From Candidatus Kaiserbacteria bacterium (GTDB lineage Bacteria; Patescibacteriota; Minisyncoccia; Phycocordibacterales; UBA2100), in the NCBI GenBank assembly GCA_027083345.1, contig JALWOZ010000030.1, positions 977-64,976 on the forward strand: a stretch of DNA of 64,000 nt, given 5' to 3'. The notes under the pieces were generated by a model. That model was not told the DNA's origin. It did not search any database and saw only the letters and a program-made list of their open reading frames with translations. The position numbers were made by a program, and so were the translations under genes. Numbering within the stretch: the first letter of the stretch is position 1; every line of letters starts with the position of its first letter. Shown piece after piece: positions 1 to 36,271 of the stretch.

Positions 1-207
1 AGCTGGAGCGAAAGATTGTGCCGTCTATATCAAATACTGCAAACTTTTGTAATGTACTCATACTCGTAAGCTTACCACAATGTAACAAGACAATCATTCA
101 ATGGGGCTTGCGGACTGAAGATGTTAAATCCGAGGGAGCAGGGAGATTTTTCTCTCAAGAAAAATACTCTGTACCCCAGTGTATGATTCGTCTTGTGAAG
201 TTGTGCA

Positions 208-870
208 CTACTTAGCCTTAGGCCAAATATTAGCCGCACTTGGTATAAGCTTGGTGAGTGGATGTCCAGAGCAATCGTGGGGCCGCGCCGGGCACACATA
301 CCTACCATATAACACTAATCCATTATTGACATACTTCCAATCCTCTTTATTAAACAGTTCCTCCAAATCTTTAGATATCTTGGTTAAGTCTGTATTATCC
401 GTAAGCCCAAAGCGCAGAGCGAATCTGCGCACATGCGTGTCTGTAGCTATACCCTCCCATATATCATACACCTCGCCAAGCACAACATTTGCCGTCTTAT
501 ACGCTACACCGGGGAGCTCTATAAGCTCCTTAGCGCCATTGGGCAGTCTACCGCCAAAATTCTTTTGTAGATATTGAGCACTTGCGATAATATTCTTAGC
601 TTTATTGTTATAGAAACTAACACTGCTAATATCTCTACTAAAGTTTACCGGATCTGCCTTTGCAAAATCTTGTACTGTCTTATATTTTTTGAATAATTCT
701 TTAGTAACCTTATTCACAAGCTTGTCTGTGCACTGCGCCGAGAGCATCACTGCCACCAAACACTGAAAGCGTGTATTATATTTAAGCTCCGTCTTAGGCT
801 TCGGGTACGCCTCTTTAAGATACTTTATTATTTTACTAGCCCTACGCCTCCTAGTCTGCAGGGTTATCAT
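208..870 (-). CDS. nth: Endonuclease III (DNA glycosylase/AP lyase)
   Basis: HhH-GPD fold sequence with LPGVAYKTANVVL. C-terminal 4Fe-4S cysteine ladder CPARPHDCSGHPL (C-x6-C-x2-C-x5-C). Confidence 0.9.
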   Translation of the reverse strand: MITLQTRRRRASKIIKYLKEAYPKPKTELKYNTRFQCLVAVMLSAQCTDKLVNKVTKELFKKYKTVQDFAKADPVNFSRDISSVSFYNNKAKNIIASAQYLQKNFGGRLPNGAKELIELPGVAYKTANVVLGEVYDIWEGIATDTHVRRFALRFGLTDNTDLTKISKDLEELFNKEDWKYVNNGLVLYGRYVCPARPHDCSGHPLTKLIPSAANIWPKAK

Positions 871-1609
871 TTTGATCTTTGCTCTTAATCTCTTCCACTT
901 TCTCTTCCTCTACCTCTACCCTCTTCTCCTCTTGAGCTATCTTATTATCTGCCTGCTCGCGCTTGGCGTGTACATCCATAAGAGAGAAGGACATCATGGC
1001 CGCAAAGACTATACCGGCTACATTAACTAAATACATTACAAATGCTCCCGCCGCCATGGGTATGCTTAGGTGTGCAATACCTATGCCAACCACAGCAAGT
1101 GGTGGCATCAAGGCCACAGCAACGGCCACACCAGTAAGTCCCGATGATAGATGTGGCTGAGCCACAGTATATGCTGCTGCAAGGCCAGCGATGATAGCCA
1201 CAGCAAAATACAAAAGAGTTGGTTGAGTGCGGGCTAATATAATAGCATTACTCATAACAGACTCGCTACCAAAACTACCAAAAGAGAAAAGGAGAGATGC
1301 ACCGACAGATGCCCCAATAGAAATAGCGGTGGCCCTACCCAAGGTGCTTAGAGAGCGCCCCATAAGAGAGTGATTACTCATAGAGAGCCCCAAAGCAAAG
1401 GCTAGCACAGGACTCATAATAGGAGCCAGAAGCATAGAGCCTATCACCACTGTCTCACTCCCTGCGAGTAAGCCAAAGCTCGCCATAAGCACAGAGAGCA
1501 CCGTCATGTAAAAGAAGTCGAAGTCTGGAGTAGCATCCTCTATCAAAGTACTAACGGCTCGCACTTTATCTGCCTCCGGTATCGCCCTAAATCTTGTAAA
1601 GATATCCAT
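851..1609 (-). CDS. Polytopic membrane protein, DUF389-like (hypothetical)
   Basis: 252-aa ORF with several hydrophobic helices, Gly/Ala-rich. Lys/Glu-rich C-terminal tail. Confidence 0.45.
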   Translation of the reverse strand: MDIFTRFRAIPEADKVRAVSTLIEDATPDFDFFYMTVLSVLMASFGLLAGSETVVIGSMLLAPIMSPVLAFALGLSMSNHSLMGRSLSTLGRATAISIGASVGASLLFSFGSFGSESVMSNAIILARTQPTLLYFAVAIIAGLAAAYTVAQPHLSSGLTGVAVAVALMPPLAVVGIGIAHLSIPMAAGAFVMYLVNVAGIVFAAMMSFSLMDVHAKREQADNKIAQEEKRVEVEEEKVEEIKSKDQNDNPAD

Positions 1610-1752
1610 GTGAATATTATAGCACGCACCTTATAAATAAGAACATCCTTGACTATTATTAAGATATGTGTCATATTAGTTGATAAGGTTTTGGACTCAA
1701 CTTTAGTTAGTTATTAGGGTTTAACTCCTAATACTAATTAACAATAAATATT

Positions 1753-3030
1753 ATGGATAGTAAAAAATCCTCTAGCAGTAGAGGCACGCGTATCAAGCGC
1801 AACAACAGTAGAAACAGTGGTAACTGGCGCAAGAAAAATAGTAACTTTAAAAGGCACTTTAAGGGTGGTGGGGGCGGCTATCGTGGTGGTAACGGCGGGG
1901 GACACCGGAACAGGACACGCAAGATGCCGAGCTTTGACCCATCACAATTTATAAATAAAAACCCTATAGAGGTGCAAGAGGTTGTATATGAACCTAAACA
2001 TACCTTTAAAACGTTTGGCCTAGACTCTAAAATCTCAAACACAATAGAGCGCATGGGTATAACAACTCCCTCCCCAATACAAGACCAAATAATACCTCAT
2101 GTAATGAAAGGTCATGATGTGATAGGCCTAGCAGAGACTGGCACCGGCAAGACGGCTGCCTTCCTCCTGCCTCTTATACACAAGGCGATGCACGCCCCTA
2201 GTAGAAAAACTCTCATACTCACACCGACACGTGAGCTAGCAATACAAATAGATGATGAGCTAAAGAAGTTCGCCAAAGGGCTCAACCTATTCTCTACAAT
2301 CTGTGTAGGAGGTGTTAATATTCGTCCTCAGATAAAATCTCTCAAGCGTAATAATCACTTTATCATTGGTACTCCTGGTCGTATATTAGACTTACAACGA
2401 CAAGGACACCTACGTACAAACGATGTAACAACCGTTGTGCTAGATGAGGCAGACAGAATGCTAGACATGGGCTTCATAGGAGATATGCGCTCTATACTTG
2501 GCAGTACACAAAAAAACCGTGAGACACTCTTCTTCTCTGCGACTATGACAAAAGAGGCTGAGAAAGTAGTGCACGACTTCCTCAAAGACCCGATAGAAAT
2601 CTCAGTGAAGAAAAAGGACATTACGAACTCTATAGAGCAAGACATCGTGCCATACACTCAAGCTAATAAGTTTGAAACGCTTATGCTACTACTCTCTAAA
2701 GAAGAGTTTACTCGCATAATAATCTTTGTGGCTATGAAACACTCTGCAAGTAAGCTCGCCCGCCAACTAAACAACAACGACATACTTGCAGAATCTATAC
2801 ATGGCAACAAGACTCATGTGCAACGCCAACGTGCTCTTAAAAAGTTTAAGAGTGGCAATGCGTGCGTGCTGGTAGCCACAGACGTAGCGGCGAGAGGAAT
2901 ACACGTAGACAATGTCTCTCATGTTATAAACTACGACCTCCCTCAACAATTTGATGATTATGTGCACCGCATAGGCAGAACCGGACGAGGTAATAAAAAA
3001 GGTAGAGCCCTGACTTTTGTACCAAATTAA
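1753..3030 (+). CDS. DEAD-box ATP-dependent RNA helicase with Gly/Arg-rich N-terminus
   Basis: Q-motif region, Walker A (GTGKTAAF), DEAD (VLDEADRMLDMGF), SAT and HRIGRTGR motifs. Confidence 0.9.
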   Translation: MDSKKSSSSRGTRIKRNNSRNSGNWRKKNSNFKRHFKGGGGGYRGGNGGGHRNRTRKMPSFDPSQFINKNPIEVQEVVYEPKHTFKTFGLDSKISNTIERMGITTPSPIQDQIIPHVMKGHDVIGLAETGTGKTAAFLLPLIHKAMHAPSRKTLILTPTRELAIQIDDELKKFAKGLNLFSTICVGGVNIRPQIKSLKRNNHFIIGTPGRILDLQRQGHLRTNDVTTVVLDEADRMLDMGFIGDMRSILGSTQKNRETLFFSATMTKEAEKVVHDFLKDPIEISVKKKDITNSIEQDIVPYTQANKFETLMLLLSKEEFTRIIIFVAMKHSASKLARQLNNNDILAESIHGNKTHVQRQRALKKFKSGNACVLVATDVAARGIHVDNVSHVINYDLPQQFDDYVHRIGRTGRGNKKGRALTFVPN

Positions 3031-3082
3031 TTTATAGTATAATAGATTTTAAAATATTATTAAGATTATAAATTAAGATATT

Positions 3083-4280
3083 ATGAAAAAACTAATCTAT
3101 ATAATATTAATTCTTATTATCATAGCCGGAGGATACACTCTTTTTGATGTGCCATCCGACAATGACAATATAACGTATGATAGAGAGTCCGGAGAATTCG
3201 GACAATATGACGATAGTAATAATTACTTTTATGAAGATGAGTATAGGGGTGCCGGAGATGAGGGTTACGTTATAGAGACGGAAGTTGACGGTCCCGAGGA
3301 CTGCGTGAGTATGGAGAAGTACGACGAGGAGCGCGGTGTATGCTACATAGAGTGCGGCACTCCCGCTCAGTGTGACGAAGTGGAGGCAAAATTAGACGCC
3401 GCACTTGACGCTCTTGATGAGGATTTCCAAGAGTTCTCAAAAGGTGTTGTAGCATTTAAAGGTAATGCAAGCGACCTTGAAGAAGAAGCGGGGGTTGTAT
3501 ATAACATAGAAAAGGGAGAGAAGTTTACAGTGGTATCGGGTACTGAGAATGCCAACCACATCAAGGTTAAAAGCTGGCTCGCGCAAATCTCTCCCAACAA
3601 GTTCTCAGACACATACCTAAACCGCCTTATCCCCTACACAAAACCCGGAGCCGACACAATGGCTTATGTAACGCCGAATATGTCAAATCCGGCAAAGTGG
3701 GATATGTATGTAAATATGGACACGATGAGAGACGGAGAAAAAGAGATGGTCTTTACGCTTATACACGAATTTATGCACATACTTACACTCAACAACTCTC
3801 AAGTTAATGCAAACATAAGTGAGGAAGACTGCGAATATTATATACAAGAAGGCTGTGTTAATGATAAAGCGTATATGAAGGCCTTTTACGACAAATATTG
3901 GAAAGGGAAGTTTAATCCAAATGCGCAAAATCCGGACGAGAATTACTCAAAGAATCCAAAAGCGTTCGTAACGGAATATGCCGCTACAAACACAGGCGAG
4001 GATATCGCAGAGTCAAGGGAAGTTTAATCCAAATGCGCAAAATCCGGACGAGAATTACTCAAAGAATCCAAAAGCGTTCGTAACGGAATATGCCGCTACA
4101 AACACAGGCGAGGATATCGCAGAGTCATTCGTGTCATTTATCTTTAAAAAGAAAATAAATCCAAATACAATCGCGGAGCAGAAGACGCAGTTCTTCTACG
4201 CTTATCCAGAACTTACAAAGATGCGCGACACAATCCGCAATGCACTAAAGCATATCGTCCGCGCAAGACTCGCTCAGTAA
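3083..4280 (+). pseudogene. Secreted zinc metalloprotease (HExxH) gene interrupted by a frameshifting 112-bp tandem duplication
   Basis: N-terminal signal/TM anchor. HEFMHIL motif. ORF 3083..4027 stops 9 nt into the second repeat copy. ORF 3978..4280 continues the same protein in the +1 frame, and the peptide GKFNPNAQNPDENYSKNPKAFVTEYAATNTGEDIAES is encoded twice. Confidence 0.6.
3903..4126. repeat. Perfect tandem duplication, 2 x 112 bp
   Basis: Units 3903-4014 and 4015-4126 are identical base for base. Unit length is not a multiple of 3. Boundaries ambiguous by +/-1. Confidence 0.9.
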
Positions 4281-4291
4281 CAATAATAAGA

Positions 4292-5506
4292 CTATCTAAA
4301 TATGGAGATAATTAGTCTCCATAACCTTACCCAAAAGGACTCTATTTTTGGTATTGGCTTTTCTTCTTGTTTTTTTACTTGCTTCTCAGGTGTTGTACTT
4401 ATCTGCGCATCTTCTGCTCTGTCGGATACCATTTTTGTATTGTTATAAACACAAAGTTGCATATTGTTTACCTTCTTTCTCGTTGAGGGGCCAAATACGC
4501 CCGTGCCTTTTGTTAAGTTAAGTGGTATAAGAATCTCGTCCGCATACTTTTCTTGAAACGCTTCTACGGCAAGCTCCGTGCGCGCTCCGTAAAGATTTGT
4601 CTCTTCTCCCCTTTCGGTTACACCAAGCTCTTGATTATTTAAAAATATTTGCAACCGCTTTACCGCATCACCTCTGTCTCCGGGCTCCAGATCCGTATTA
4701 AACGGCTCGCACGCCTCTTTACCATCTCTGTTATTTTGATTGTTTTGATTGTCTTTAACTTCTTTATTATTCTCTGATATAACTCTTACCTGATTATCTA
4801 CCTCTCTCTCGGTAATCAAATTGAGCTTTTGCTCTTGTTCTTGCTCAAGCGCGCAATTTTGTACACTTATCGGCTTTTGTGTTCTGCAAGTTTTGTCTGT
4901 ATATACCGTACCATCACCAAGCTTATCTACACAAAAGACATCTCGCTTTTGCACACCACCGGTACACGCTCCCCACTCTCCCGTTTGCCAAATATAATTC
5001 ACTCCAATGCCGACTCCTGTGTTGCTTACTATCCCGCCCCCACCTACGCCTGCGGAAGGTTCTGCATTGTTTGCAGGGCGCCAATCGGTACGCACATCGC
5101 AATTTGTACAATCAAATGTAAGCGTTCCTATCAAGCTACCGGTCGCTCTGCCACTAAACTTACCTGTTGAGGTGTCTATGCTGACCCCCGTAAAATTAAT
5201 CCACCCAAGACTCTCACCCCAAGCGTATCCCGAGAGAATGCCGGCATCATTGCTCACTCCACCTTGTGTTGGAGAGAGATTGATCCAACCGGAATTTTGA
5301 GACCATACATACCCTGAAAGAGCAGAGTCTGTAACGGTAACATTCTCAAAGTTAATCCAACCTATATTATTACTCCATGCGTAATAATATGGACTTGTCA
5401 TACCTTCAGCATATGAAAATGTTGGAATAATTAAAAAAATAAATACCAAAAATATTTGGTAAAAAGATAATAATCCATATTTTGAAAGTATATTGTATCT
5501 AGTCAT
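4292..5506 (-). CDS. Secreted repeat protein (SGYxWxxxxGWINF/L repeats) with C-terminal peptidoglycan-binding-like domain
   Basis: Signal peptide ending FSYA. At least four WS/GE-x-GWIN repeats. Gly-rich linker. C-terminal segment (DRGDAVKRLQIFLNN...YGARTELAVEAFQEKY) resembles PG_binding_1. Confidence 0.55.
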   Translation of the reverse strand: MTRYNILSKYGLLSFYQIFLVFIFLIIPTFSYAEGMTSPYYYAWSNNIGWINFENVTVTDSALSGYVWSQNSGWINLSPTQGGVSNDAGILSGYAWGESLGWINFTGVSIDTSTGKFSGRATGSLIGTLTFDCTNCDVRTDWRPANNAEPSAGVGGGGIVSNTGVGIGVNYIWQTGEWGACTGGVQKRDVFCVDKLGDGTVYTDKTCRTQKPISVQNCALEQEQEQKLNLITEREVDNQVRVISENNKEVKDNQNNQNNRDGKEACEPFNTDLEPGDRGDAVKRLQIFLNNQELGVTERGEETNLYGARTELAVEAFQEKYADEILIPLNLTKGTGVFGPSTRKKVNNMQLCVYNNTKMVSDRAEDAQISTTPEKQVKKQEEKPIPKIESFWVRLWRLIISIFR

Positions 5507-5523
5507 ATTTATTTTATTTGACT

Positions 5524-5961
5524 CTACCTAAAAAGTGTTATTGGGTTTATCGGTGCCACATCAATAATCTTCTCAAGTGATGGTCTAAAGAGTATCGCTC
5601 TTTTTATGGTCTGATATACGAGTATCTTATCGCCATTTTTTGCATTATTGAAAAAAGTTTTATCTTTCATTTTTTGTTCATCAGCTATTGTCAGTATAAT
5701 TGGCTGAACATCTCCTGGCAGTAGCATGATTTCTGATACTGCAGATACAACTTTAATATCATTTTTTTGTATAGCATTACCTTTATTGAAAGTAACCACA
5801 AGAACAATAATAAGCACAGTTATCAAGGTGAGCACTACCCACACTCCAGGACGGATTATACGTACAAATAATTTTATTTGCTTACACTTTATCTTTAAAA
5901 TCTTAGTAGATTCTTTTTTTATTTTTGCAAGGTCTATTCTCTTTTTCTTCTTCTTTACCAT
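5524..5961 (-). CDS. Small single-pass membrane protein (hypothetical)
   Basis: Poly-Lys N-terminus, one TM helix. Sits between the two large surface-protein genes and is co-oriented with them. Confidence 0.45.
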   Translation of the reverse strand: MVKKKKKRIDLAKIKKESTKILKIKCKQIKLFVRIIRPGVWVVLTLITVLIIVLVVTFNKGNAIQKNDIKVVSAVSEIMLLPGDVQPIILTIADEQKMKDKTFFNNAKNGDKILVYQTIKRAILFRPSLEKIIDVAPINPITLFR

Positions 5962-5966
5962 AGACC

Positions 5967-8900
5967 TTATTCATTGTTATTTACTTCATCTTCTGTAGTA
6001 GTGTCTTGTGTTGTTGTGGTAGATTCTTCGTCTACATTAGAACTATCACTCTCTTGTTGATTTTCTTCTTCAGCATCTTGCCCTTGAGTTTGTATATCTA
6101 TTTGAGCCTGATTATCTTCTTCATCTATTGTTTCTTGGTTAGATGTATCCTCGTCAGTAACTCCAGTGTCTGAAATATTCGCATCAGTGCTGGTACTCAC
6201 CTCTGTTGTTGTATTTACTATAGTTTCTATATCTTCTTGTGTGCTTTCACCAGTGCCAACTTTTACTACTCGTTCTGCTGTTGCCACGTGCTCCTCCCAC
6301 TGTGCCTTGTATGTAATTGTATAAGTTGCATCTGTAGATGTGTCTATATCCACATTTTGTACTTCTGAACCATCTACATATGTCTTAATACTTAAATCAC
6401 TACCATCAGGATTTTTAGCACTAGCACCAAGATCTGAGTAACCCGCACCTACTGCAACTTCAGCCGGGTTATTGCCAAGTATAGTAATTGTTGGTACAAA
6501 TGTATCTTGATTGTTATCATCCTCAGATGTTGCATCTGTATTATCGGAATTATTTGCCGCAGATACGGATGCAACCAACTGAGACTCAAGACTGGCAATA
6601 CGCGCCTCAAGCTGAGATATCTGCTCATCTTTCTCGCTCTTCCAAGTAAGTAACTCTGTAATTTTCTCGGTATTTGCTTTTACAGTATCCCACATATCTT
6701 GTATAGCTTTTACAATAAGCGCCGGATAGTATCGTGATTTCAAACTCTCTACCTGTCCCTCTTCGTTATAGTTCACATACCACTTCAAATCAGTCTCGTT
6801 TACCTCTTCAGCAATAAATCCTGTTGCTTCTTTATCATTGTTTTTATACTTATACTTCACTGGACGAAGTTGCATCAACTCATCAAGTCCCCATGGCAAG
6901 TCTTCCACATCTTTTTTATAGCGAATAGATGATGGGTAACAATCTGTACCATCTCCACCATAGCTAATTTGACCATATGTAAACCCACCGGTTCTCTTGT
7001 AACAAAGTATCCTATCATTACTATCCCACTCCGCCAACTTTGGAAATGCCATTTGAGCACCATTCATGATAATTGCCTGACTGCCGTTTGTATAGAGTTC
7101 CAAAGTACCATCACCAACACTATCCAAACCACTATCATTATCACCAATCGCTAAGTCTAATGATGGAGAAGCGCCAATACCCACTCTTCCGGAGCTGTCA
7201 ATACGAACTCTCTCTGTATTATTCGTAGCAAATACAAGTGTCCCGTCTGCCGGCGAGAACATTCCCCCGTCAGTATCACCCCCGGAGTCATAAAATGAAT
7301 ATCCTGCACTTCCACCACCATAAGTAGAACCACTACCTACCTTAATACCACCTTGAACCTGAAGTGTAGCATTTGGAGTGCCGGTATCCGTACCAATATT
7401 AACACGACCAGTTGTACCATCTATATTCATTCTTACTTGTGCATCTGAGAAAAACCTTAGATCATCTGTACCGGAAATACGAAAACCAAGATATGAAGCA
7501 TCCGCATTACCCTGAATTTCAGCAAATCCTGTAGAGCCATTGTAAAATGACAAAAGTCCCCGTGAAGCATTAAGCCTCAAAAGTTCTGCGGTACCTGTAC
7601 CCTTTAGTTCTATTGTAGCACCTGGGTCTGTTGTTCCGATACCTAAGTTTCCACTCTTTCCGTACAAAGTCGGTCCGGCACTTCCCAATTTGACCGCACC
7701 AACGGTGGTGTCGCCAACTCCATACAGACCCAAGGTATTGGCGGTATCAATATCCGTGAAAAAGCCATCATCTCCGACCTGCAAAAATCTTGCTCCCGAT
7801 GCGGTGCCGTTGTCATCTATATGCAACTTAGCTGCCGGAGAAGTCGTGCCACCAATCCCCACTTTTCCGGAACTGTCTATCATAAAGCGAGTTGGTTTGG
7901 ATGTCGCCGATACATCGTAAAGATAAAACTCTCCGCCAGTAAGACCCAAGCCGTTACCTGTGCCACCAACTCCCAACTGCCAAGCGGTACTGGTGGCATT
8001 GTTATTTTCTATTGTTATAAGTGAAGTTCTGTCTGTGGTACCACTTGTTTGAAAAGTTGCTTGTCCATATCCTGAATTGTTTACTGTAAGCGAATTTGAT
8101 ATAACAGTTGCCCCACTTGCTCTCAATGTCCCCACAATATCCAATTTATAACTTGGTGTTGATGTACCAATACCGATATTACCGCTACTTACATCCGCAA
8201 ATAGAGCCGGAGTACTTGATGTTCCCACTCTGAAATCCCCCCATACATCTAATTTTGATGCCGGGGTGGTTGTACCAACACCAACATTACCACTTGCGTC
8301 AATCACGAAAGGACTTGTGTCGCTCGCTTGATCGTTTATCTGGAAAGAATTCCCACTCGTTGTGTTTGTAAGTGTTAAAAGCTCTGCGGATTCATCAAAA
8401 TAAAAAGGAGCACTAGTTGTAGAACCGCCAAGAGCAAGGTCGTCCGTTTGGCTTGAAAGATATGTAGTTGCGCCTCCATCGGTAAAGAGACTTCCTCCAA
8501 CCACCTCCCAAGAGCTTCCGTTATAAACATTAAATTTGTTTGTAGAAGTATTGTAAATCTGAAGTCCCGTTGCCGGTGAGGTTATAGCATCTCTTTGAGT
8601 AGTTGTCATTCTTGGCGCCAAGAAACCTTTGGTGGTGGAAGTAAGATCAAGAATTGCAGTACTTGCAACAGAGCTTGCGCCAAGAGCAACAGCATTATTA
8701 CTGGAGTCAATAAATAATGTATTTGAGTCAATGTTTAGGTTGTTTGGAATGGAGACTGTTGAAGCGTTTATGGTTAAAGTATCTCCCGAAGCGTCTCCAA
8801 TTGTTGTATTGCCACTTGACGAGAGGGTGGTAAATGCTCCTGTACTCGCCGTAGTCGCTCCGATTGGAGTATCGTTTATAGTTCCTCCGGAAATAGTTAA

Positions 8901-10712
8901 ATCATCTGCAACTTCAGAGTCTGCCCAATCAAATGAAAGCGTACCGGAATTTGCAAGCTCTCCCTTTTCAATCGCGGTACCGAGTGTGCTTGAAATTGTA
9001 TTTGATGAAATTGTAATACCCGTACCGGCGGTATAAGTAGTGTTTTGATCAGTTACCCAAGAGAGTACCCCGGAACCATTTGTTGACAACAGTTGTCCTC
9101 CAACACCATCTGTTACTGGTAAAGTGTAGGTAATATTTGCACTCTGATCCCCTCCTTGAAATATAGTGTAGAACTGAGGCAAAGATCCCGTCTCTATAAT
9201 ACCAAGTGTACCATTAAGACTGAGTGTATGAGATGGGTTCGTTGTACCAATACCTATCCTACTGTCGGTACTATCAACATAAAATGTTGAAGTGTCCACC
9301 GTCAAATCCGCAGAAACTTTCACTGATCCCGAAACATCCAACTTGCTACCTGGAGAAGAAATACCAACACCAACATTACCACTTGCGTCAATCACGAAAG
9401 GACTTGTGTCGCTTGCTTGATCGTTTATCTGGAAAGAATTCCCAGTACCTGTATTTACTATAGAGAGAGTATTAGTACCGGTAATATTGATACTTGTTGA
9501 AGTGTCCAAAGTAAGTGCATCTTTTAACTGAGCGAAGTCTAGTGAGTCATTGACAATATCAAGCGTTACTCCGGCGCTCTCAGATCCTGAATTTGCAACA
9601 GATATCAATGAATTACCTGCGTCTGCAATTGTTGCAACATAATTACCTGTGGTGTCCGTGCCGAGCGCAACCGCATTTGCGTCAATAGTTGCCACGCCAC
9701 TTGCAAATGTAATGTCGCCATAATCTCCGTCGGCTATCTCATTAGCGCCAACGGTGTCGGCATCAAGCGTTGCTACTCCACTAGCAAAAGTAAAATCACC
9801 ATAATCTCCATTAGCCATTTCGCTTGGTGTAATATCCGTGCCCAAAGTGCTTGAAATTGCATTTGACGAAATTGTAATTCCCGTGCCGGCTGAGTAAGTT
9901 GTGTTTTGATCTGCCACCCAAGTAAATCCACCTGTTGCAGAGTCATAAGAAAGAATTTGATTATCTGCCGGAGAATTGGTTACTTTCAAATCAACTCCTT
10001 GTATTGTGCTATTTGCAATTTCTGATGTGGAAACTGATGAAAGAGTCGCAAGCGCGCCGAGCCCGAGTGACGTGCGCGCCGTTGCTCCGGACTCATATGC
10101 AAATGCTCCGGCTCCTGTTGCAACAATAAACTCTCCGTCTGAGGATGGTGCTCCAAGAGTGTCCAAGTCTTCCAAAACTCCCGTTACAGACACTGTCGCA
10201 TCTCCTGAAGACGCTCCTCCGGTGAGTCCGGTACCTGCTATAACTGCGGTTATGTCTCCGGTGCCGGACGCAAAACTGCTCCACGAGCCACCAGAATTTT
10301 TATATTGCAATGTGCCGGCATTGTCTCTAAATCCGTATCCATTAACTCCGCTTGTATTGCCAAAGTTTATGTATTTTGAGGCTCCCAACTTAATATCCCC
10401 AGAAATATCAATACTACTCACCCATGACGGCAATCCACTTGCAAGAGAAAGCAATTGCCCATTTGAACCCGCAGAGAGCAAAGACCAAACGGAAGAATTT
10501 GAGTAAAGTATCGCTCCATCGGTTTGAGAATCATTTGTATATACTGAGGTCTTTACTCCACAATTTGAATCAGTCGGCAAGCACTGCGGGTCAAGAGTTG
10601 CTCCGGGTGCATATATAATCGCTTGCGCAAATGATTGCGGGATAAAGAAGGTCAAAACAATCGCTAAAAACAATGATAATCTATTTTTGCCACCGGTCAT
10701 AAAAAATAACAT
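5967..10712 (-). CDS. Giant secreted tail-fibre-like surface protein. Gly/Thr/Ser-rich beta-repeats, peptidase-S74-type intramolecular chaperone autoprocessing domain, coiled coil, Ig-like domain, acidic C-tail
   Basis: 1581-aa uninterrupted ORF with signal peptide. Repeated NTSPFVIDASGNVGVG blocks. S74-like motif SSIRYKKDVEDLPWGLDELMQLRPVKYKYK...GFIAEEV followed by a heptad coiled coil (QISQLEARIASLESQL). ITILGNNPAEVAVGAGYSDLGASA Ig-like domain. D/E-rich tail. Confidence 0.8.
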   Translation of the reverse strand: MLFFMTGGKNRLSLFLAIVLTFFIPQSFAQAIIYAPGATLDPQCLPTDSNCGVKTSVYTNDSQTDGAILYSNSSVWSLLSAGSNGQLLSLASGLPSWVSSIDISGDIKLGASKYINFGNTSGVNGYGFRDNAGTLQYKNSGGSWSSFASGTGDITAVIAGTGLTGGASSGDATVSVTGVLEDLDTLGAPSSDGEFIVATGAGAFAYESGATARTSLGLGALATLSSVSTSEIANSTIQGVDLKVTNSPADNQILSYDSATGGFTWVADQNTTYSAGTGITISSNAISSTLGTDITPSEMANGDYGDFTFASGVATLDADTVGANEIADGDYGDITFASGVATIDANAVALGTDTTGNYVATIADAGNSLISVANSGSESAGVTLDIVNDSLDFAQLKDALTLDTSTSINITGTNTLSIVNTGTGNSFQINDQASDTSPFVIDASGNVGVGISSPGSKLDVSGSVKVSADLTVDTSTFYVDSTDSRIGIGTTNPSHTLSLNGTLGIIETGSLPQFYTIFQGGDQSANITYTLPVTDGVGGQLLSTNGSGVLSWVTDQNTTYTAGTGITISSNTISSTLGTAIEKGELANSGTLSFDWADSEVADDLTISGGTINDTPIGATTASTGAFTTLSSSGNTTIGDASGDTLTINASTVSIPNNLNIDSNTLFIDSSNNAVALGASSVASTAILDLTSTTKGFLAPRMTTTQRDAITSPATGLQIYNTSTNKFNVYNGSSWEVVGGSLFTDGGATTYLSSQTDDLALGGSTTSAPFYFDESAELLTLTNTTSGNSFQINDQASDTSPFVIDASGNVGVGTTTPASKLDVWGDFRVGTSSTPALFADVSSGNIGIGTSTPSYKLDIVGTLRASGATVISNSLTVNNSGYGQATFQTSGTTDRTSLITIENNNATSTAWQLGVGGTGNGLGLTGGEFYLYDVSATSKPTRFMIDSSGKVGIGGTTSPAAKLHIDDNGTASGARFLQVGDDGFFTDIDTANTLGLYGVGDTTVGAVKLGSAGPTLYGKSGNLGIGTTDPGATIELKGTGTAELLRLNASRGLLSFYNGSTGFAEIQGNADASYLGFRISGTDDLRFFSDAQVRMNIDGTTGRVNIGTDTGTPNATLQVQGGIKVGSGSTYGGGSAGYSFYDSGGDTDGGMFSPADGTLVFATNNTERVRIDSSGRVGIGASPSLDLAIGDNDSGLDSVGDGTLELYTNGSQAIIMNGAQMAFPKLAEWDSNDRILCYKRTGGFTYGQISYGGDGTDCYPSSIRYKKDVEDLPWGLDELMQLRPVKYKYKNNDKEATGFIAEEVNETDLKWYVNYNEEGQVESLKSRYYPALIVKAIQDMWDTVKANTEKITELLTWKSEKDEQISQLEARIASLESQLVASVSAANNSDNTDATSEDDNNQDTFVPTITILGNNPAEVAVGAGYSDLGASAKNPDGSDLSIKTYVDGSEVQNVDIDTSTDATYTITYKAQWEEHVATAERVVKVGTGESTQEDIETIVNTTTEVSTSTDANISDTGVTDEDTSNQETIDEEDNQAQIDIQTQGQDAEEENQQESDSSNVDEESTTTTQDTTTEDEVNNNE
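8279..9444. repeat. Intragenic direct repeat pair (83 bp, 1 mismatch) inside the giant fibre gene
   Basis: 8279-8361 and 9362-9444 are identical except one C/T. Both encode the NDQASDTSPFVIDASGNVGVG repeat block. Confidence 0.85.
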
Positions 10713-10841
10713 CTTGAATAATATCTTAAATAATATTTATATAAATATTATCATATATAATTTAGCTAATTGACATACTTGTCCACATAAACACTGTGAT
10801 TTATAAAGATATGTTCTATTTTAATAATATACAATAAACAA

Positions 10842-11939
10842 ATGATACGGCAATATAAATTTTATTTAATAATTAGAGATTTCATATATAAATATGCACA
10901 ATATGTTACAGCTGTGTCTTTGTTTTTTGGATTTATTATAGACAATATTATATTACAACGTATAGATAGTCTTTTTACATTTTATATTATCCTATATCAT
11001 TTTAGTGTAATTACTCTTGGAATCTTATTGATTCATGCATTAGAAAATAAAAAGAATAAAAACAGATATTTAAAATGGATTCATTTAGCATTAGAAGTTA
11101 TTATACCATTTTCATTTGGCGCTTTATTTAGTGGATTTTTTATCTTCTATTCTCAAAGTGCAGGTTCTATAATCTCATGGATATTCTTAATTATATTGAT
11201 GCTATTTATGATAAGTACAGAATATTACAAAAAACATTATCTAAATATACTTGTACAAATAACCCTTTGGTACTTTACACTAATAACTTTTTTGAACCTA
11301 TATCTACCAATAATTTTAGCACGCATAAATACTTACGTATTTCTATTAGGGGGAGTATTATCTTTATTAGGGGCATGGGGCTACTTAAGTGTATTAAAGC
11401 ACATTGAACCTGGTGTATACAACAAATATTCTAAAAAACTAATATGTAATATTATAGTAGTGTTTGGATTGGTAAACATATTATACTTTACTAACATTAT
11501 CCCTCCAATACCACTCTCCGTGCAAAATGCCGGGGCCTACTATTTAGTAGTACATAAAGGAGATAAGTACTCTCTATACACAGAGCAATTACCTTGGTTC
11601 TCTATTAAAAAATATATTCCAACTACTATATATTTAAAACCTGGCAACGCTGTGTACATCTTCTCGTCTGTATTTGCTCCTACAAAACTCTCTACAAAAA
11701 TATATCACCAATGGCAATACAAAGATAACAATGGCAGATGGCAAACGGCATCTACAATAGAGTTCCCCATCGTGGGTGGGCGCGCATCTGGCTACCGCGG
11801 ATATACGATGAAGAAGAATGTGTGGGACGGAGCGTGGCGCGTGCGCATTATCACAGAGCGCGAGCAAGTAATAGGCACAACGTATTTCACAATAAAGATA
11901 ACCAATGTACAGCCTAAGTTAATAAATGTTATTTACTAG
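10842..11939 (+). CDS. Polytopic membrane protein with C-terminal soluble domain (hypothetical)
   Basis: About 8 predicted TM helices, then a roughly 140-aa hydrophilic C-terminal domain. Divergent from the fibre gene across an AT-rich 130-bp promoter region. Confidence 0.55.
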   Translation: MIRQYKFYLIIRDFIYKYAQYVTAVSLFFGFIIDNIILQRIDSLFTFYIILYHFSVITLGILLIHALENKKNKNRYLKWIHLALEVIIPFSFGALFSGFFIFYSQSAGSIISWIFLIILMLFMISTEYYKKHYLNILVQITLWYFTLITFLNLYLPIILARINTYVFLLGGVLSLLGAWGYLSVLKHIEPGVYNKYSKKLICNIIVVFGLVNILYFTNIIPPIPLSVQNAGAYYLVVHKGDKYSLYTEQLPWFSIKKYIPTTIYLKPGNAVYIFSSVFAPTKLSTKIYHQWQYKDNNGRWQTASTIEFPIVGGRASGYRGYTMKKNVWDGAWRVRIITEREQVIGTTYFTIKITNVQPKLINVIY

Positions 11940-12010
11940 CTGCCAGACTAGGATTCGAACCTAGATAGCGGGAACCAAAATCCCGAGTCCTACCATTAGA
12001 CGATCTGGCA
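11940..12010 (-). tRNA. tRNA-Gln (anticodon TTG)
   Basis: Reverse complement folds as a cloverleaf. Acceptor TGCCAGA/TCTGGCA with U1-A72 and discriminator G. D-loop AATGGTA. Anticodon stem CGGGA/TCCCG with loop TTTTGGT. T-arm CTAGG-TTCGAAT-CCTAG. Confidence 0.85.
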
Positions 12011-12084
12011 GTACTTCGCCACGTCAGACGTGGCTACGAACTGTGCAACAATAAGGTTGCACGCACTTTATACCATTTTTTAAA

Positions 12085-13071
12085 CTACTTTTCTACCCCT
12101 AATAACTCCAAAACCTTCTTGGCATCATGCCTTAGGAGTGAGCGCTTTACTGTGTCTGCATTATCTCTATTTACCTTTACAGACTCGGCTAATAAATCTT
12201 CTCCTATGAACTCTACGCCACTAACCTCAAACTCTGTAATATTCCCCAACTCAACCATCTCTCCTTTTTCTTTTTTTATAAGCTCTTGCAATTCTTGTGT
12301 AACACTCATATTGGTATTGTATAGCACCGTCTCTGGCAGGAAGCCATTAGAAAGTCTTTGCATCTCTTTAAGAAACTCAGCAACACTAAACCCCGTAGTA
12401 TGCCCCTCTTTAGTTAGGAGGTTGACAACTATTACCTTACGAGCCCTACTCTCCGCTAATACCTCTGCCATACCCGGCACAATAAGGTTGGGTATTATAG
12501 AGCAGTAGAAGTTGCCGGGTGCTATTATAATAATATCTGCATCTAATATTGCTTTTTTCGCTCGTGGATTAAGAGTTGGACTGTCAGTGAGCTTAATATC
12601 TGTATAACCCTGAATATATCTATTATCTATAACTCCCTCTCCATGCACCACCTCTCCATTTGGCATAGTAACCTGCAAGTGATGCTTACTTAATGTAACA
12701 GGATATATCCTACCGCAAACATTAAGTATCTTACCTGCCTGCCTTATAGCCTCCTCCAGCGAGCCTGTGATCTTCTCTAAAGTAGATAATAAAAGATTAC
12801 CAAAAGTATGGCCCATCATAGTACCAACATCATATCTATATGTAAAAAGTTCTCTGAGCATCTCCGGAGAGCGCGAGAGTGCCACGAGTACTTGCCTCAC
12901 ATCTCCTGCGGGGAGCACCCCCATATCGACTCGAAGTTTACCAGTAGAGCCTCCTGAATCACTCATTGCAACAATTGCAGACACTTCTACATTAGGTAAC
13001 TCTTTAAGCTCAGTAAGCAAAGTAAACGAACCTGTACCACCTCCAATTGTTACTATTTTCTTTTTACTCAT
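12085..13071 (-). CDS. CofD/YvcK (UPF0052) family protein, gluconeogenesis factor-like
   Basis: N-terminal IVTIGGGTGSFTLL and SDSGGSTGKLR motifs typical of the YvcK/CofD family. Confidence 0.8.
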   Translation of the reverse strand: MSKKKIVTIGGGTGSFTLLTELKELPNVEVSAIVAMSDSGGSTGKLRVDMGVLPAGDVRQVLVALSRSPEMLRELFTYRYDVGTMMGHTFGNLLLSTLEKITGSLEEAIRQAGKILNVCGRIYPVTLSKHHLQVTMPNGEVVHGEGVIDNRYIQGYTDIKLTDSPTLNPRAKKAILDADIIIIAPGNFYCSIIPNLIVPGMAEVLAESRARKVIVVNLLTKEGHTTGFSVAEFLKEMQRLSNGFLPETVLYNTNMSVTQELQELIKKEKGEMVELGNITEFEVSGVEFIGEDLLAESVKVNRDNADTVKRSLLRHDAKKVLELLGVEK

Positions 13072-13072
13072 A

Positions 13073-13708
13073 TTATCTCAGCTCCCCTAAATGCGCATCA
13101 TCATTCCATTGTTTAAGGTAGAATTTACCACTATCGTCTATTGTAATATGCGTAATACCTGTATTAGCCATATGCATACTATACACTGCACTTAATGCTC
13201 CATTAGCACTAAGTGTCTTACCTACAAGCATGTGAGTTATAAAAAATCTTAAGAAAAAACCATGAGACACTACCAAAATATACTCCTCTGGCATATTCCT
13301 CAGAGTCTCATAAAAGTCGCTAGAGCGCTTAAGCATATCTGCGTATGACTCTGCCTGATCACTATACTCTCTACCTTCTACCCAACCCTTTTCTATATTT
13401 AATACAATATCCTTAATCTTTGGATCGTGCCTATCTTGACCAATTACTCTCTCTGGCAACACTCTCTCGTGTATCATGGGAAGTTCACTCACCTCTAAAC
13501 CTTTAGCATCTGCGATTATCCGTGCTGTGTCTTGAGCTCGCTTATATGTACTTGAGTATATAACATCAACCCTTTCATCTTTAAATCTCTTAGCTGTTAT
13601 AGTAGCCTGCCCTACACCCTTTGGGGTTAGATGACTATCTGGCCCTCTGCGCAAATTATCTACATTATCCATACTCTCACCGTGTCTGACCAAATAAATA
13701 TATTTCAT
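13073..13708 (-). CDS. Histidine phosphatase (phosphoglycerate mutase-like) family protein
   Basis: N-terminal LVRHGES catalytic RHG motif. About 210 aa. Confidence 0.8.
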   Translation of the reverse strand: MKYIYLVRHGESMDNVDNLRRGPDSHLTPKGVGQATITAKRFKDERVDVIYSSTYKRAQDTARIIADAKGLEVSELPMIHERVLPERVIGQDRHDPKIKDIVLNIEKGWVEGREYSDQAESYADMLKRSSDFYETLRNMPEEYILVVSHGFFLRFFITHMLVGKTLSANGALSAVYSMHMANTGITHITIDDSGKFYLKQWNDDAHLGELR

Positions 13709-13709
13709 A

Positions 13710-14756
13710 TTACTCTGCAGTTACCCTTATAATAGCAAGCTCGAGTGGCAAATGCTTTATGCTTACACTACGCATACTATCCCTAGCAGACAACAACTCT
13801 AACACAGCATTAGAAGTTAAATGTGATGGTTGTATATCAGCAAGAGTCTTAAGCTCTACTAAATCATCTTTACCAAATTGCAAAGCAAGATCTTGCTCTG
13901 CACGAGAACCTCCATGCTTAAGGATGAGTACTGCTCTAGCTCTATCTAAAAGCAACTCCGTAGCAAGTATTGTGTCTACTCCAGACTCTACTAATGTACT
14001 CACGGCATCAAGAGCTTGCTTTGTAGAGTTATTCACGAATCCAGATAAAATATCGTTAAGTATAGCTCCCCGCGGTGCGCCTGTGATACTCTCAACCTCG
14101 TCTATGAGCACAGTCTTACTCTTAACTCCAGCTAATACCTTTTGCAAAATCGATATACCATCACGGAAGGAGCCATTAGCAATAGTGGCAATAAGATCGT
14201 CTGCCCCATCGCCAAATTTATAACCCTCACGCTCTGCAATACTCTTTACCACCTTGGCAACGTCAGCTCTACTAGGACTCTTTAAAGAGTAGACTTGGGC
14301 TCTTGAGTGGATTGTGGCAGGCAACTTCTCTGGCTCGGTAGTAGCCAACACAAAAACACAATAGCTAGGTGGCTCCTCAAGTGTCTTGAGAAGTGCATTA
14401 AAGGCGCTTTTAGAGAGCATGTGCGCCTCGTCTAATATATACACCTTATACCCTCCCTCAAATGGCAAAGTTGCCACAGACTCACGCAAATCTCTAATAT
14501 CCTCTACAGAGTTATTGCTTGCGGCATCTAACTCATAAATGTCTTTAGAGCTCACCCCGAGCTCTTTGGCGAAGATCCTAGCAAGGGTTGTCTTCCCTAC
14601 TCCGCGCGTACCACTAAAAATATATGCATGCGCAGGGTTCTTCTCCCTAACTGCCTTTTGTAAGGCAGATACAACATTACTTTGCCCCACCACCTCTTTA
14701 AAGCTCTCTGGTCTATACTTACTGTATAATGCTACATTGTCATTCATTATTAGCAT
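13710..14756 (-). CDS. dnaX: DNA polymerase III subunit gamma/tau, short form
   Basis: KYRPxxFxEVVGQ opening, Walker A GTRGVGKTTLARIFAKEL, DEAH-like ILDEAHMLS, sensor motifs. Only 348 aa, so no tau C-terminal domains. Confidence 0.85.
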   Translation of the reverse strand: MLIMNDNVALYSKYRPESFKEVVGQSNVVSALQKAVREKNPAHAYIFSGTRGVGKTTLARIFAKELGVSSKDIYELDAASNNSVEDIRDLRESVATLPFEGGYKVYILDEAHMLSKSAFNALLKTLEEPPSYCVFVLATTEPEKLPATIHSRAQVYSLKSPSRADVAKVVKSIAEREGYKFGDGADDLIATIANGSFRDGISILQKVLAGVKSKTVLIDEVESITGAPRGAILNDILSGFVNNSTKQALDAVSTLVESGVDTILATELLLDRARAVLILKHGGSRAEQDLALQFGKDDLVELKTLADIQPSHLTSNAVLELLSARDSMRSVSIKHLPLELAIIRVTAE

Positions 14757-29614: not shown

Positions 29615-29661
29615 TCTTTTACAACTCTTACTTATTGTTGATAATTAATTGAGTACTCTAT

Positions 29662-29780
29662 GTTGGCGCTTACCTACTCTCCCCTTTACGAGTACCATCG
29701 GTGTTACTGTGCTTAACTGCCGGGTTCGGAATGTAGCCGGGTGTACCCACAGCACCAAAGCACCAACATACAAAACTCAA
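29662..29780 (-). rRNA. rrf: 5S ribosomal RNA (approximate ends)
   Basis: Reverse complement contains CCGAACCCGGCAGTTAAGC and GGTACTCGTAAAGGGGAGAGTAGGTAAGCGCCAA with pairing 5'/3' ends. Confidence 0.8.
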
Positions 29781-29899
29781 TTAATTCCTCTAACTAACAA
29801 AAGAACAAGTATTAACAACTAAATACAATAAAGAAGAACCAATGACCAACCAATAATTTGGCAAAATATAAACCTAAAATCTAGTGATTCACAAAGCTC

Positions 29900-33360
<3,461 letters not shown>

Positions 33361-34111: not shown

Positions 34112-36271
34112 TTACCCCCTCTGAGCGATGATCTCGTCGGCAACATTCTTAGGTACTACAGCGTAATTACTAAACTCCATGGTTGCATTAGCTCTACCCT
34201 CCGTCATGCTCCTTAGGGCTGTGGTGTAGCCAAACATCTCACTTAAAGGCACCTTAGCAGTGATAACCTTAGCATTGCCTCTGTCGTCCATACTCTCTAC
34301 CATACCACGCTTAGAGTTGAGGTTACCTGTCACATCTCCCATAAACTGCTCTGGTGTTGTCACCTCCACCTTCATTATTGGCTCTAGGATTGCTGGGTTG
34401 GCCTGCTTGGCAGCGTCTGTAAGGGCTTGGCTGGCCGCTATCTTAAAGGCCACTTCTGATGAGTCCACATCGTGATATGACCCATCATAGAGGTCTACAG
34501 AGATATCCTCCATTGGGTATCCTGCTAGCACTCCTCTGCTCATTGCCTCTTTAAGCCCCTTCTTTATAGCTCCCATATACTCACTAGGGATAACTCCTCC
34601 CTTGATGTTATTAATAAATTCAAAGTGCTCTTCTCTCTCAATATTGCTTGCGCGCTTCTTCTCCTTCTCTCCCTCAGCTGCCACCTCCTCTGGTTGTAGT
34701 GGTGCAATCTTAATCTTTACGTGTCCGTATTGTCCACGACCACCTGTCTGCTTAATGTACTTATTCTCAACATCTGCTGTACCTTGTATAGTCTCTCGGT
34801 AGGCCACCTGTGGGCGTCCAAGCTCCGCATCTACACCAAATTCTCTCTTCATCCTGTCTACCAAAATATCTAAGTGTAACTCTCCCATTCCTGATATAAC
34901 CGTCTCATTGGTCTCCTCATCTGTATGTACCTTAAAGGTTGGGTCCTCATCTGAGAGTTTACTTAATGCCAAACCCATCTTCTCTTGGTCAGCCTTTGTT
35001 TTAGGCTCTACGCGAGCTGAGATAACCGGCTCAGGGAAAGTTATCTCCTCAAGTACTATTGGTGCGTCTACTGGGCAGAGAGTATGACTCATCTTAAGGT
35101 CTTTAGCGCCAACTACAGCAGCTATCTCTCCTGTATAAATTTCAGATACCTCTTCTCTTTTATCAGCCATAAGGCGCACAATACGACCTATGCGCTCCTT
35201 CTTACCGGTACCGGTATTTAAGTAGCTCTCTCCACTCTTAAGTACTCCGGAATATACACGCACAAAAGTTAACTGTCCTACAAATGGGTCTGTCTGGAGT
35301 TTAAAAGCCAATGCTGCCAACGGTTCATCATCACTGGCCTTACGCTCTACCTCTTCATCTGTGTCTGGATTAATACCCTTAACTGGTGGCAAATCTGTAG
35401 GAGCAGGTAAGTAATCAACTACCGCATCAAGTACCAATTGTACTCCCTTATTCTTGAATGCACTACCACATAAAACAGGGAATAACCCATTAGCTATCAC
35501 TGCTTTGCGTAACTCAGCTTTAAGAGTGTCATAAGCTATCTCCTCTCCCCCTAGATATTTGTCCATCAACTCCTCATTATTCTCTACAATGCGCTCTATA
35601 AGCTCCCCTCTATACTTCTCCGCATCTGCTTTATATTGCTCTGGTATCTCGCTCTCCACAACATCCTTACCCATCTCACCCTCAAAGGTGTAGGCCTTCA
35701 TCTTTAGTAGATCTATAGCTCCAACATGCTCATCCTCATGACCCATTGGTATCTGCAAGCGCACAGCCTTGTTACTTAGCTTAGTCTGTATACTTGCATA
35801 CGCCGTCTCAAAGTCGGCTCCAAGCTTGTCCATCTTATTAAGGAAACAAATGCGAGGCACGCCGGCCTCATCGGCATAGCGCCAGTTCGTCTCTGTCTGT
35901 GGCTCTACTCCAGCAGCAGCGTCAAACACCACAACAGCACCATCAAGCACATACATAGACCGCTTAACCTCTGCAGTAAAGTCAATGTGTCCCGGAGTGT
36001 CAATGATGTTGAAGTTTATAGACGCCTCCTTGTCTCCCTTAGCATAAGTGGGTATATAATCACAACTTATGGCAGCAGCGGTGATGGTAATACCACGCTC
36101 ACGCTCTTGCTCCATCCAGTCTGTCACAGCCTCTCCGTCGTGCACCTCTCCTATCTTATGACTCTCGCCCGTGTAGTAAAGTATACGCTCTGAGGTAGTT
36201 GTTTTACCCGCATCTACGTGCGCCACGATACCGAAGTTGCGCATTTTCTCTATTGGATGTTTCCTTGCCAT
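34112..36271 (-). CDS. fusA: Elongation factor G
   Basis: [19 protein letters not shown]1 motif, DTPGH, NKMD, and full five-domain length (719 aa). Confidence 0.95.

Follow-up and report, generated by a model that had tools for sequence, protein, structure and literature searches.

The 64-kb stretch of DNA analyzed here (64,000 nt, hereafter called the window) comes from a metagenome-assembled contig of a Candidatus Kaiserbacteria bacterium, and it carries a metalloprotease gene whose reading frame is interrupted by a perfect tandem duplication. This arrangement raises the question of whether the second repeat copy is an error of assembly, a mutation that has disabled the gene, or one state of a genetic switch that can be thrown back by the loss of a copy. 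The evidence described below points to a real, recent, and spontaneous 112-bp duplication that probably inactivates the gene for a surface zincin in this CPR bacterium, and that is intrinsically unstable.

The initial annotation of this DNA placed a perfect 112-bp tandem duplication at positions 3903-4126 and proposed that a unit of 3n+1 bases splits the gene. The coordinates and description prove to be right to the base when examined by Tandem Repeats Finder and by string comparison, and translation likewise bears out the split, with copy 1 read in the native frame and copy 2 read in a shifted frame until a stop codon is reached. The features relevant to the discussion are as follows.

3083..4280, plus strand: the whole disrupted gene; removal of either repeat copy in silico restores a 361-aa ORF
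3083..4027, plus strand: upstream ORF of 314 aa, comprising by translation native residues 1-311 followed by Arg-Glu-Val
3764..3778, plus strand: HEFMH, the HExxH zinc-binding/catalytic motif (residues 228-232), recognized by alignment and located upstream of the repeat
3903..4014, plus strand: repeat copy 1, 112 nt, encoding native residues from about 274 to 311, including FVTEYAATNTGEDIAES (E306-E310 at 3998-4012)
3978..4280, plus strand: downstream ORF of 100 aa, with 13 out-of-frame residues followed by native copy 2 and the C-terminus (FVSFIFKKK...ARLAQ)
4015..4126, plus strand: repeat copy 2, 112 nt, the same as copy 1 and sharing the frame of the gene's downstream part
4025..4027, plus strand: premature stop codon TAA, encountered 11 nt into copy 2 in the shifted frame

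By direct string comparison, the 112 nt at 3903-4014 are base-identical to those at 4015-4126, and nothing separates the two head-to-tail units. A single array was detected by Tandem Repeats Finder at 3903-4127 (period 112, 2.0 copies, 100% matches, zero indels), and it is the sole repeat with a period greater than 12 nt in the whole 64 kb. The identity at period 112 extends 1 base rightward (A at 4127) and 0 bases leftward, and thus the junction microhomology is 1 nt. The junction between the copies reads GCAGAGTC in copy 1 followed directly by AAGGGAAG in copy 2, or, in longer context, ...GGATATCGCAGAGTC followed by AAGGGAAGTTTAATCC. The array is flanked on the left by ATATTGGA and on the right by TTCGTGTC, such that the left flank, a single unit, and the right flank together constitute the signature of a one-copy allele.

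Several familiar sources of repeated DNA were considered and set aside. A mobile element or dispersed repeat was ruled out because the window holds no further copy of the unit, which occurs only 2 times even when 3 mismatches are tolerated, where 0 occurrences are expected from shuffled sequences. The template and variable repeat pair of a DGR was ruled out because the copies are identical and adjacent, and there is no reverse transcriptase among the listed neighboring genes (a DEAD helicase and surface proteins). There is also no short-unit (1-9 nt) contingency tract in the gene, in which Tandem Repeats Finder detects only the array of two 112-nt units.

The consequences for translation follow from the length of the unit, which is not a multiple of three (112 = 3x37+1). 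With 3n+1 bases added, translation stops three codons beyond the junction. The upstream ORF reads copy 1 in its native frame (...KGKFNPNAQNPDENYSKNPKAFVTEYAATNTGEDIAES) and then enters copy 2 in the shifted frame, ending in ...EDIAES-REV-stop. The downstream ORF begins at an out-of-frame ATG inside copy 1; in its frame copy 2 is read natively, and a TAA at 3969-3971 closes copy 1. The two ORFs overlap by 50 nt, and the ENA annotation lists the downstream one as a separate gene. When one copy is deleted in silico, an intact coding region of 361 aa plus a stop codon results. Annotations of this locus should therefore treat the split ORFs as one disrupted gene, and not as two hypothetical proteins.

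Undisrupted, the gene would encode an HExxH zincin of the Peptidase_Mx1 or BACCAC_01431 type, anchored in the membrane and with a fold like that of lethal factor. In an alignment of 18 sequences, H228 and E229 never vary, and H232 is nearly invariant (90% or more). A second block, EYAATNxGEDIAESF, is invariant or nearly so through its E306-F312 portion and sits within the repeat unit; here E306, D307, I308, A309, E310, and F312 are invariant across the same 18 sequences. By analogy with lethal factor and MtfA, we take a glutamate of the EDIAE helix (E306 or E310) to be the third metal ligand. When a profile was built from the alignment, it matched the putative zinc metallopeptidase BACCAC_01431 (PDB 4l7a) over both motifs, and HEFMH lines up with the HEFAH of that structure. 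The fold also resembles that of the solved family member. The protein itself scores 18.5 bits against Peptidase_Mx1 (PF15890), below the gathering threshold of 25.6 bits (E 0.0014), and among its aligned relatives 13 of 18 match PF15890 at E<=1e-3 and 5 match PF15887. The original assignment of the gene as a metalloprotease is thus upheld by the HEFMH motif, by the conserved EDIAESF helix, and by the matches of its relatives to the Pfam family Peptidase_Mx1. The same annotation called the protease secreted, and an extracytoplasmic location is indeed probable, given the N-terminus MKKLIYIILILIIIAGGYTLF, which resembles a hydrophobic anchor or signal, and six cysteines that are invariant in the alignment (C74, C87, C91, C97, C250, and C258).

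What would be lost from the truncated protein can be judged from the same alignment and from an AlphaFold model (mean pLDDT 79.5; about 90 across most of the modeled domain). The upstream ORF still holds the N-terminal hydrophobic anchor, the Cys-rich region, HEFMH, and EDIAES. In the model, the cut after residue 311 falls inside the helix spanning residues 304-317, and the helices at 326-336 and 338-360 are lost. The 314-aa product therefore retains HExxH and EDIAES and loses the second half of the EDIAESF helix, the presumed metal-ligand helix. Eight invariant positions (F312, K330, F333, F334, E339, R344, R348, and L351) lie in the missing C-terminal 50 residues. With half of this helix, two C-terminal helices, and eight invariant residues gone, activity has probably been abolished, and inactivity of the 314-aa product is the most likely outcome on the basis of conservation and the model. 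The gene is therefore a fresh pseudogene that is carried by the consensus genotype.

This view would be mistaken if the two-copy form were itself functional, either through a +1 ribosomal frameshift that yields a protein with a 37-residue internal duplication, or through a split enzyme assembled from the products of the two ORFs. A +1 shift at UCA-AGG-G, which is present in the sequence, would indeed rejoin the frames, and the two ORFs do overlap by 50 nt. However, AGG is not a rare codon in this DNA, where it accounts for 16.5% of Arg codons, and a P-site tRNA reading UCA is unable to re-pair in the +1 frame. The resulting insertion would also duplicate the presumed metal-ligand helix. A split enzyme faces difficulties of its own, because the N-terminal part is exported and the 100-aa ORF has no signal sequence, such that the fragments could not meet. 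No Shine-Dalgarno-like sequence is found upstream of this second ORF. Furthermore, no relative with such an arrangement is seen among 17 homologues and 80 related loci. Programmed frameshifting and the split enzyme were consequently dropped on the grounds that AGG is common and that the C-terminal ORF carries no export signal, and a functional two-copy form is considered extremely improbable.

The preferred reading, that of an inactivating duplication, requires that the gene formerly had a single copy of the segment. Over its whole length, the collapsed 361-aa ORF can be aligned without a gap at the junction to 17 homologues (33-58% identity), all of which carry one copy. In addition, no tandem repeat lies within the matched protease gene region in 80 related loci from GTDB genomes. 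One copy is therefore taken as the ancestral state. The closest genomes with members of this protease family are Candidatus Moraniibacteriota MAGs. Some of the related loci have tandem arrays near the protease region but outside it (L005 7042-7370, L012 3405-3751, and L014 4457-5164), and arrays of this sort include a 160-nt unit present 4.4 times at 98% identity in a Chloroflexota MAG and a 57-nt unit present 6.2 times in an Absconditabacterales MAG.

The age of the lesion can be gauged by what else has happened to the gene. Across the 18 sequences 38 columns are invariant, and aside from the duplication the gene keeps all 38. The lesion must be young, since there is no secondary decay and every invariant column has been kept. 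The initial annotation had suggested either a very recent event or an artefact of assembly. The first of these alternatives agrees with the intact invariant columns, whereas the second is disfavored by the recovery of the junction in three assemblies.

An artefact would mean that the genome has one copy and that the second was created when an assembler traversed a spurious loop or left a contig overlap untrimmed. Perfect identity and head-to-tail adjacency are typical of such errors, the contig is metagenome-assembled, and the assemblies that agree probably derive from the same reads. Yet the identical duplication occurs in two consensus assemblies of different contig structure. The truncated protein encoded by the upstream ORF is found both on the NCBI contig of 123,438 bp and on the ENA scaffold_1141 of 37,781 bp (SAMN10217895), and this scaffold is 100% identical to window positions 1-14027, both copies included. 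The same region is represented by a single NCBI contig of 123,438 bp and by ENA contigs of 37,781 and 89,129 bp, and the two must be different assemblies because that of ENA breaks in the 23S rRNA gene where that of NCBI runs on.

A third assembly provides evidence of another kind. In Logan, both split ORFs are absent, though the flanking genes for a DEAD-box helicase (1753-3030) and a 404-aa protein (4292-5506) are present. The Logan contigs (SRR13853571), which are 100% identical to the window, cover positions 1472-3932 and 4098-7136, and their ends lie exactly 30 nt (k-1 for k=31) into the repeat from either side. In a simulated k=31 de Bruijn graph of the two-copy sequence, the left unitig likewise stops at 3932 and the right unitig starts at 4098, whereas the simulated one-copy sequence produces no break at any k. 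Since the Logan breaks match only the two-copy simulation, k-mers that span the junction between copy 1 and copy 2 must exist in the reads. The chance that two breaks would fall at those bases is estimated here at about 1e-7, given that Logan contigs in this region are about 1.6-3 kb in length.

With junction k-mers in the reads, an artefact of contig joining or loop traversal by a single assembler cannot explain the Logan breaks. An untrimmed contig overlap of k or k-1 was also ruled out, because the k=31 read-graph assembly branches at both boundaries as well. To our knowledge, 112 matches neither k nor k-1 of common assembler settings, and no second repeat of this kind occurs in the 64 kb. 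The 112-bp duplication is thus regarded as real, and an origin by assembly error is judged quite unlikely. More generally, the places where an independent small-k assembly breaks can serve in lieu of read inspection when perfect tandem duplications in MAGs are evaluated.

Two features of these data bear on how far they reach. The sample SAMN10217895 and the run SRR13853571 recur for every gene checked, with a link between run and BioSample that is deduced from their co-occurrence only, and thus one read set probably lies behind all three assemblies. Because the read set is probably shared, the result is without replication across samples. Furthermore, the k=31 graph is the same in simulation for a mixture of alleles and for a pure two-copy population, and the dominance of the two-copy allele is deduced only from the two consensus assemblies.

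The number of copies deserves similar care. In simulations at k<=113, the graph of the repeat is cyclic, and the shortest path covering every edge then contains two copies. If k in the consensus assemblers always stayed below 114, two copies would be no more than the minimum path through the loop, and the actual number could be greater. At k>=119 a two-copy array becomes linear and a three-copy array does not, and 119, 127, and 141 are standard upper k values. The two consensus assemblies also agree on two copies. A longer array that was reduced to its minimal traversal is accordingly considered very improbable.

If the duplication is an ordinary mutation, its formation might be explained by a single illegitimate template switch or an unequal exchange. 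Illegitimate template switching is the most likely of these, given a junction microhomology of only 1 nt. No strong hairpin was found at the duplication boundaries. The region does contain an imperfect 21-nt direct repeat (76% identity) that consists of AAAGGGAAGTTTAATCCAAAT at 3902-3922 and AAAAAGAAAATAAATCCAAAT at 4146-4166, which encode KGKFNPN and KKKINPN, respectively. One of its copies starts at the left boundary of the duplicated segment, the other is 20 nt beyond the right boundary, and they are 132 nt apart in the one-copy gene. Slippage promoted by this repeat was ruled out as the origin, because the repeat is away from the junction and was unused. Once the duplication had formed, a stop codon three codons past the junction would leave the 314-aa product and presumably an inactive enzyme.

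The lesion is intrinsically unstable because it consists of two perfect 112-bp units arranged head to tail. Precise deletion of one copy, through replication slippage with nascent-strand misalignment or through template switching between sister strands, would restore the gene, perhaps at a rate far above that of point reversion if behavior in E. coli, and not in CPR bacteria, is used as the guide. In the tetA gene of E. coli, tandem repeats of about 101 bp are deleted at high frequency and independently of RecA (PMC8378479, PMC7145654). By analogy, reversion of the present lesion by RecA-independent slippage is plausible. This reversibility is a by-product of the type of mutation, and it is not evidence of an evolved switch. 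The occurrence of the OFF allele as the consensus means that it is very recent, that it is neutral or favored, or that it was fixed by drift in a clonal bloom.

A more elaborate proposal is that duplication mediates phase variation, with one-copy ON and two-copy OFF alleles that coexist and shift in frequency to toggle the surface protease. The architecture fits, since an out-of-frame perfect tandem duplication would be excised to restore the ORF. The same mechanism has been described for pneumococcus, where spontaneous tandem duplications in cap3A (serotype 3) and in cap8E and tts (serotypes 8 and 37) switch the capsule off and reversion switches it on (Waite 2001/2003, via PMC4243769, PMC11163986). 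The affected gene encodes a surface or extracellular protein and lies beside genes for other large surface proteins, a class that is often phase-variable. A mixture of alleles would also be hidden in the k=31 graph, as described above.

Other observations argue against this proposal. Among 5.8 billion protein clusters, the one-copy allele is absent, and only the truncated protein is recovered (P0001, 100% identity), with the next match at <=58% identity. An exact DNA scan with the right-hand boundary sequence gave 0 matches in GTDB genomes and 0 in JGI metagenomes, and the two-copy path was the one taken in both consensus assemblies. Nor is recurrence evident: independent duplications in the same gene are absent from the 80 related loci, although this is a weak test because the organism was found in only one sample. 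Finally, with 1 nt of junction microhomology and with the 21-nt direct repeat unused, neither the forward duplication nor its re-formation looks facilitated. Phase variation is thus considered unlikely, though it is a better candidate than an assembly error.

The protease gene lies in a neighborhood with genes for other surface proteins. The 404-aa protein is encoded on the minus strand at 4292-5506, convergent with the protease gene and with 12 nt between the stop codons, and it carries a thrombospondin type-1 or ADAMTS repeat (E 7.6e-9) together with PG_binding_1 (E 4.2e-8). Its eukaryote-like adhesion module is unusual in a CPR bacterium. A further large ORF, on the minus strand at 5967-10712, encodes 1581 aa with PTL_trimer, Peptidase_S74 (a tail-spike-type intramolecular chaperone), and bacterial surface Ig-like domains. 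Within this ORF, an 83-nt direct repeat (8273-8355 and 9362-9444) has 98.8% identity between copies 1089 nt apart, and it probably reflects a domain repeated within a giant surface protein.

Other features of the region were also noted. On the minus strand, a 23S rRNA match within 29661-33356 spans 3456 nt compared with the 2925-nt Rfam model, about 530 nt extra, and no Rfam intron family in it reaches the gathering threshold. It is within this gene that the ENA assembly break lies. A 5S rRNA follows the 23S at 29661-29767, and the gene upstream of the 23S is that for EF-G (34112-36271, minus strand); with EF-G in this position and no adjacent 16S, the rRNA genes appear to be unlinked. The EF-G protein is 93-94% identical to metagenomic proteins, and its named matches belong to Candidatus Pacebacteria, Parcubacteria, Kaiserbacteria, and Patescibacteria, which indicates a CPR/Patescibacteria MAG of Parcubacteria/Paceibacteria-like affinity. 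Just outside the window, about 1.5-7 kb upstream of its first position on ENA scaffold_1141, genes for an HpaII-type restriction endonuclease, Vsr (a very-short-patch repair endonuclease), and a 794-aa SMC/AAA_23-like ATPase are found in a row, which constitutes a restriction-modification or defence island.

As it stands, this locus exhibits an ordinary and well-known kind of mutation, the practical value of the finding is modest, and nothing points to a dedicated switch. The locus does capture gene loss in progress in a CPR bacterium with a reduced genome, in which a surface protease has probably just been inactivated. If reads were found to hold both alleles, the locus would represent a rare natural case of reversible gene inactivation mediated by duplication. 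If the switch were true, the cell would toggle a surface zinc protease whose possible targets are a host cell or the bacterium's own surface proteins. It would then be the first instance of cap3A-type phase variation beyond the streptococci and the first from an uncultured lineage of episymbionts, recognized directly in metagenomic reads.

Comparisons with known systems help to define what is familiar in this locus and what is not. The closest protein families are Peptidase_Mx1 and Peptidase_Mx (PF15890 and PF15887; PDB 4l7a), together with the zincins ATLF, Pro-Pro endopeptidase, and MtfA. Compared with Peptidase_Mx1, the protein here falls below the Pfam threshold and has an extra N-terminal Cys-rich and helical module as well as a membrane anchor. 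We know of no member of the Peptidase_Mx subfamily with a demonstrated substrate.

Simple-sequence contingency loci, such as those of Neisseria, Haemophilus, and Campylobacter, resemble the present case in that a change in copy number causes a reversible frameshift in a gene for a surface protein. However, these loci are built from homopolymers or units of 2-9 nt in many copies, their hypermutable tracts are conserved across strains, and they change rapidly in both directions. Here, in contrast, one long unit is present twice and the relatives carry no tract.

The closest natural precedent is the pneumococcal capsule, in which an intragenic perfect duplication is likewise OFF and its precise loss is ON. 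Duplication units in cap3A reportedly range from 11 to 239 bp, and the 112 bp seen here fall within this range. In pneumococcus, both states and the switching between them were seen in culture, with many independent duplications in the same gene, whereas here only the OFF state was seen, once, in one metagenome.

The nearest experimental counterpart is the 101-bp tetA assay in E. coli (pSTL57, from the Lovett laboratory). This is an engineered plasmid construct, whereas the lesion described here is a natural one in the chromosome of a CPR bacterium. The two share the same architecture, in which a null allele is restored by precise deletion, and the tetA system supplies the mechanism that would be expected for such a deletion, namely RecA-independent nascent-strand misalignment or sister-strand exchange (PMC8378479, PMC7145654).
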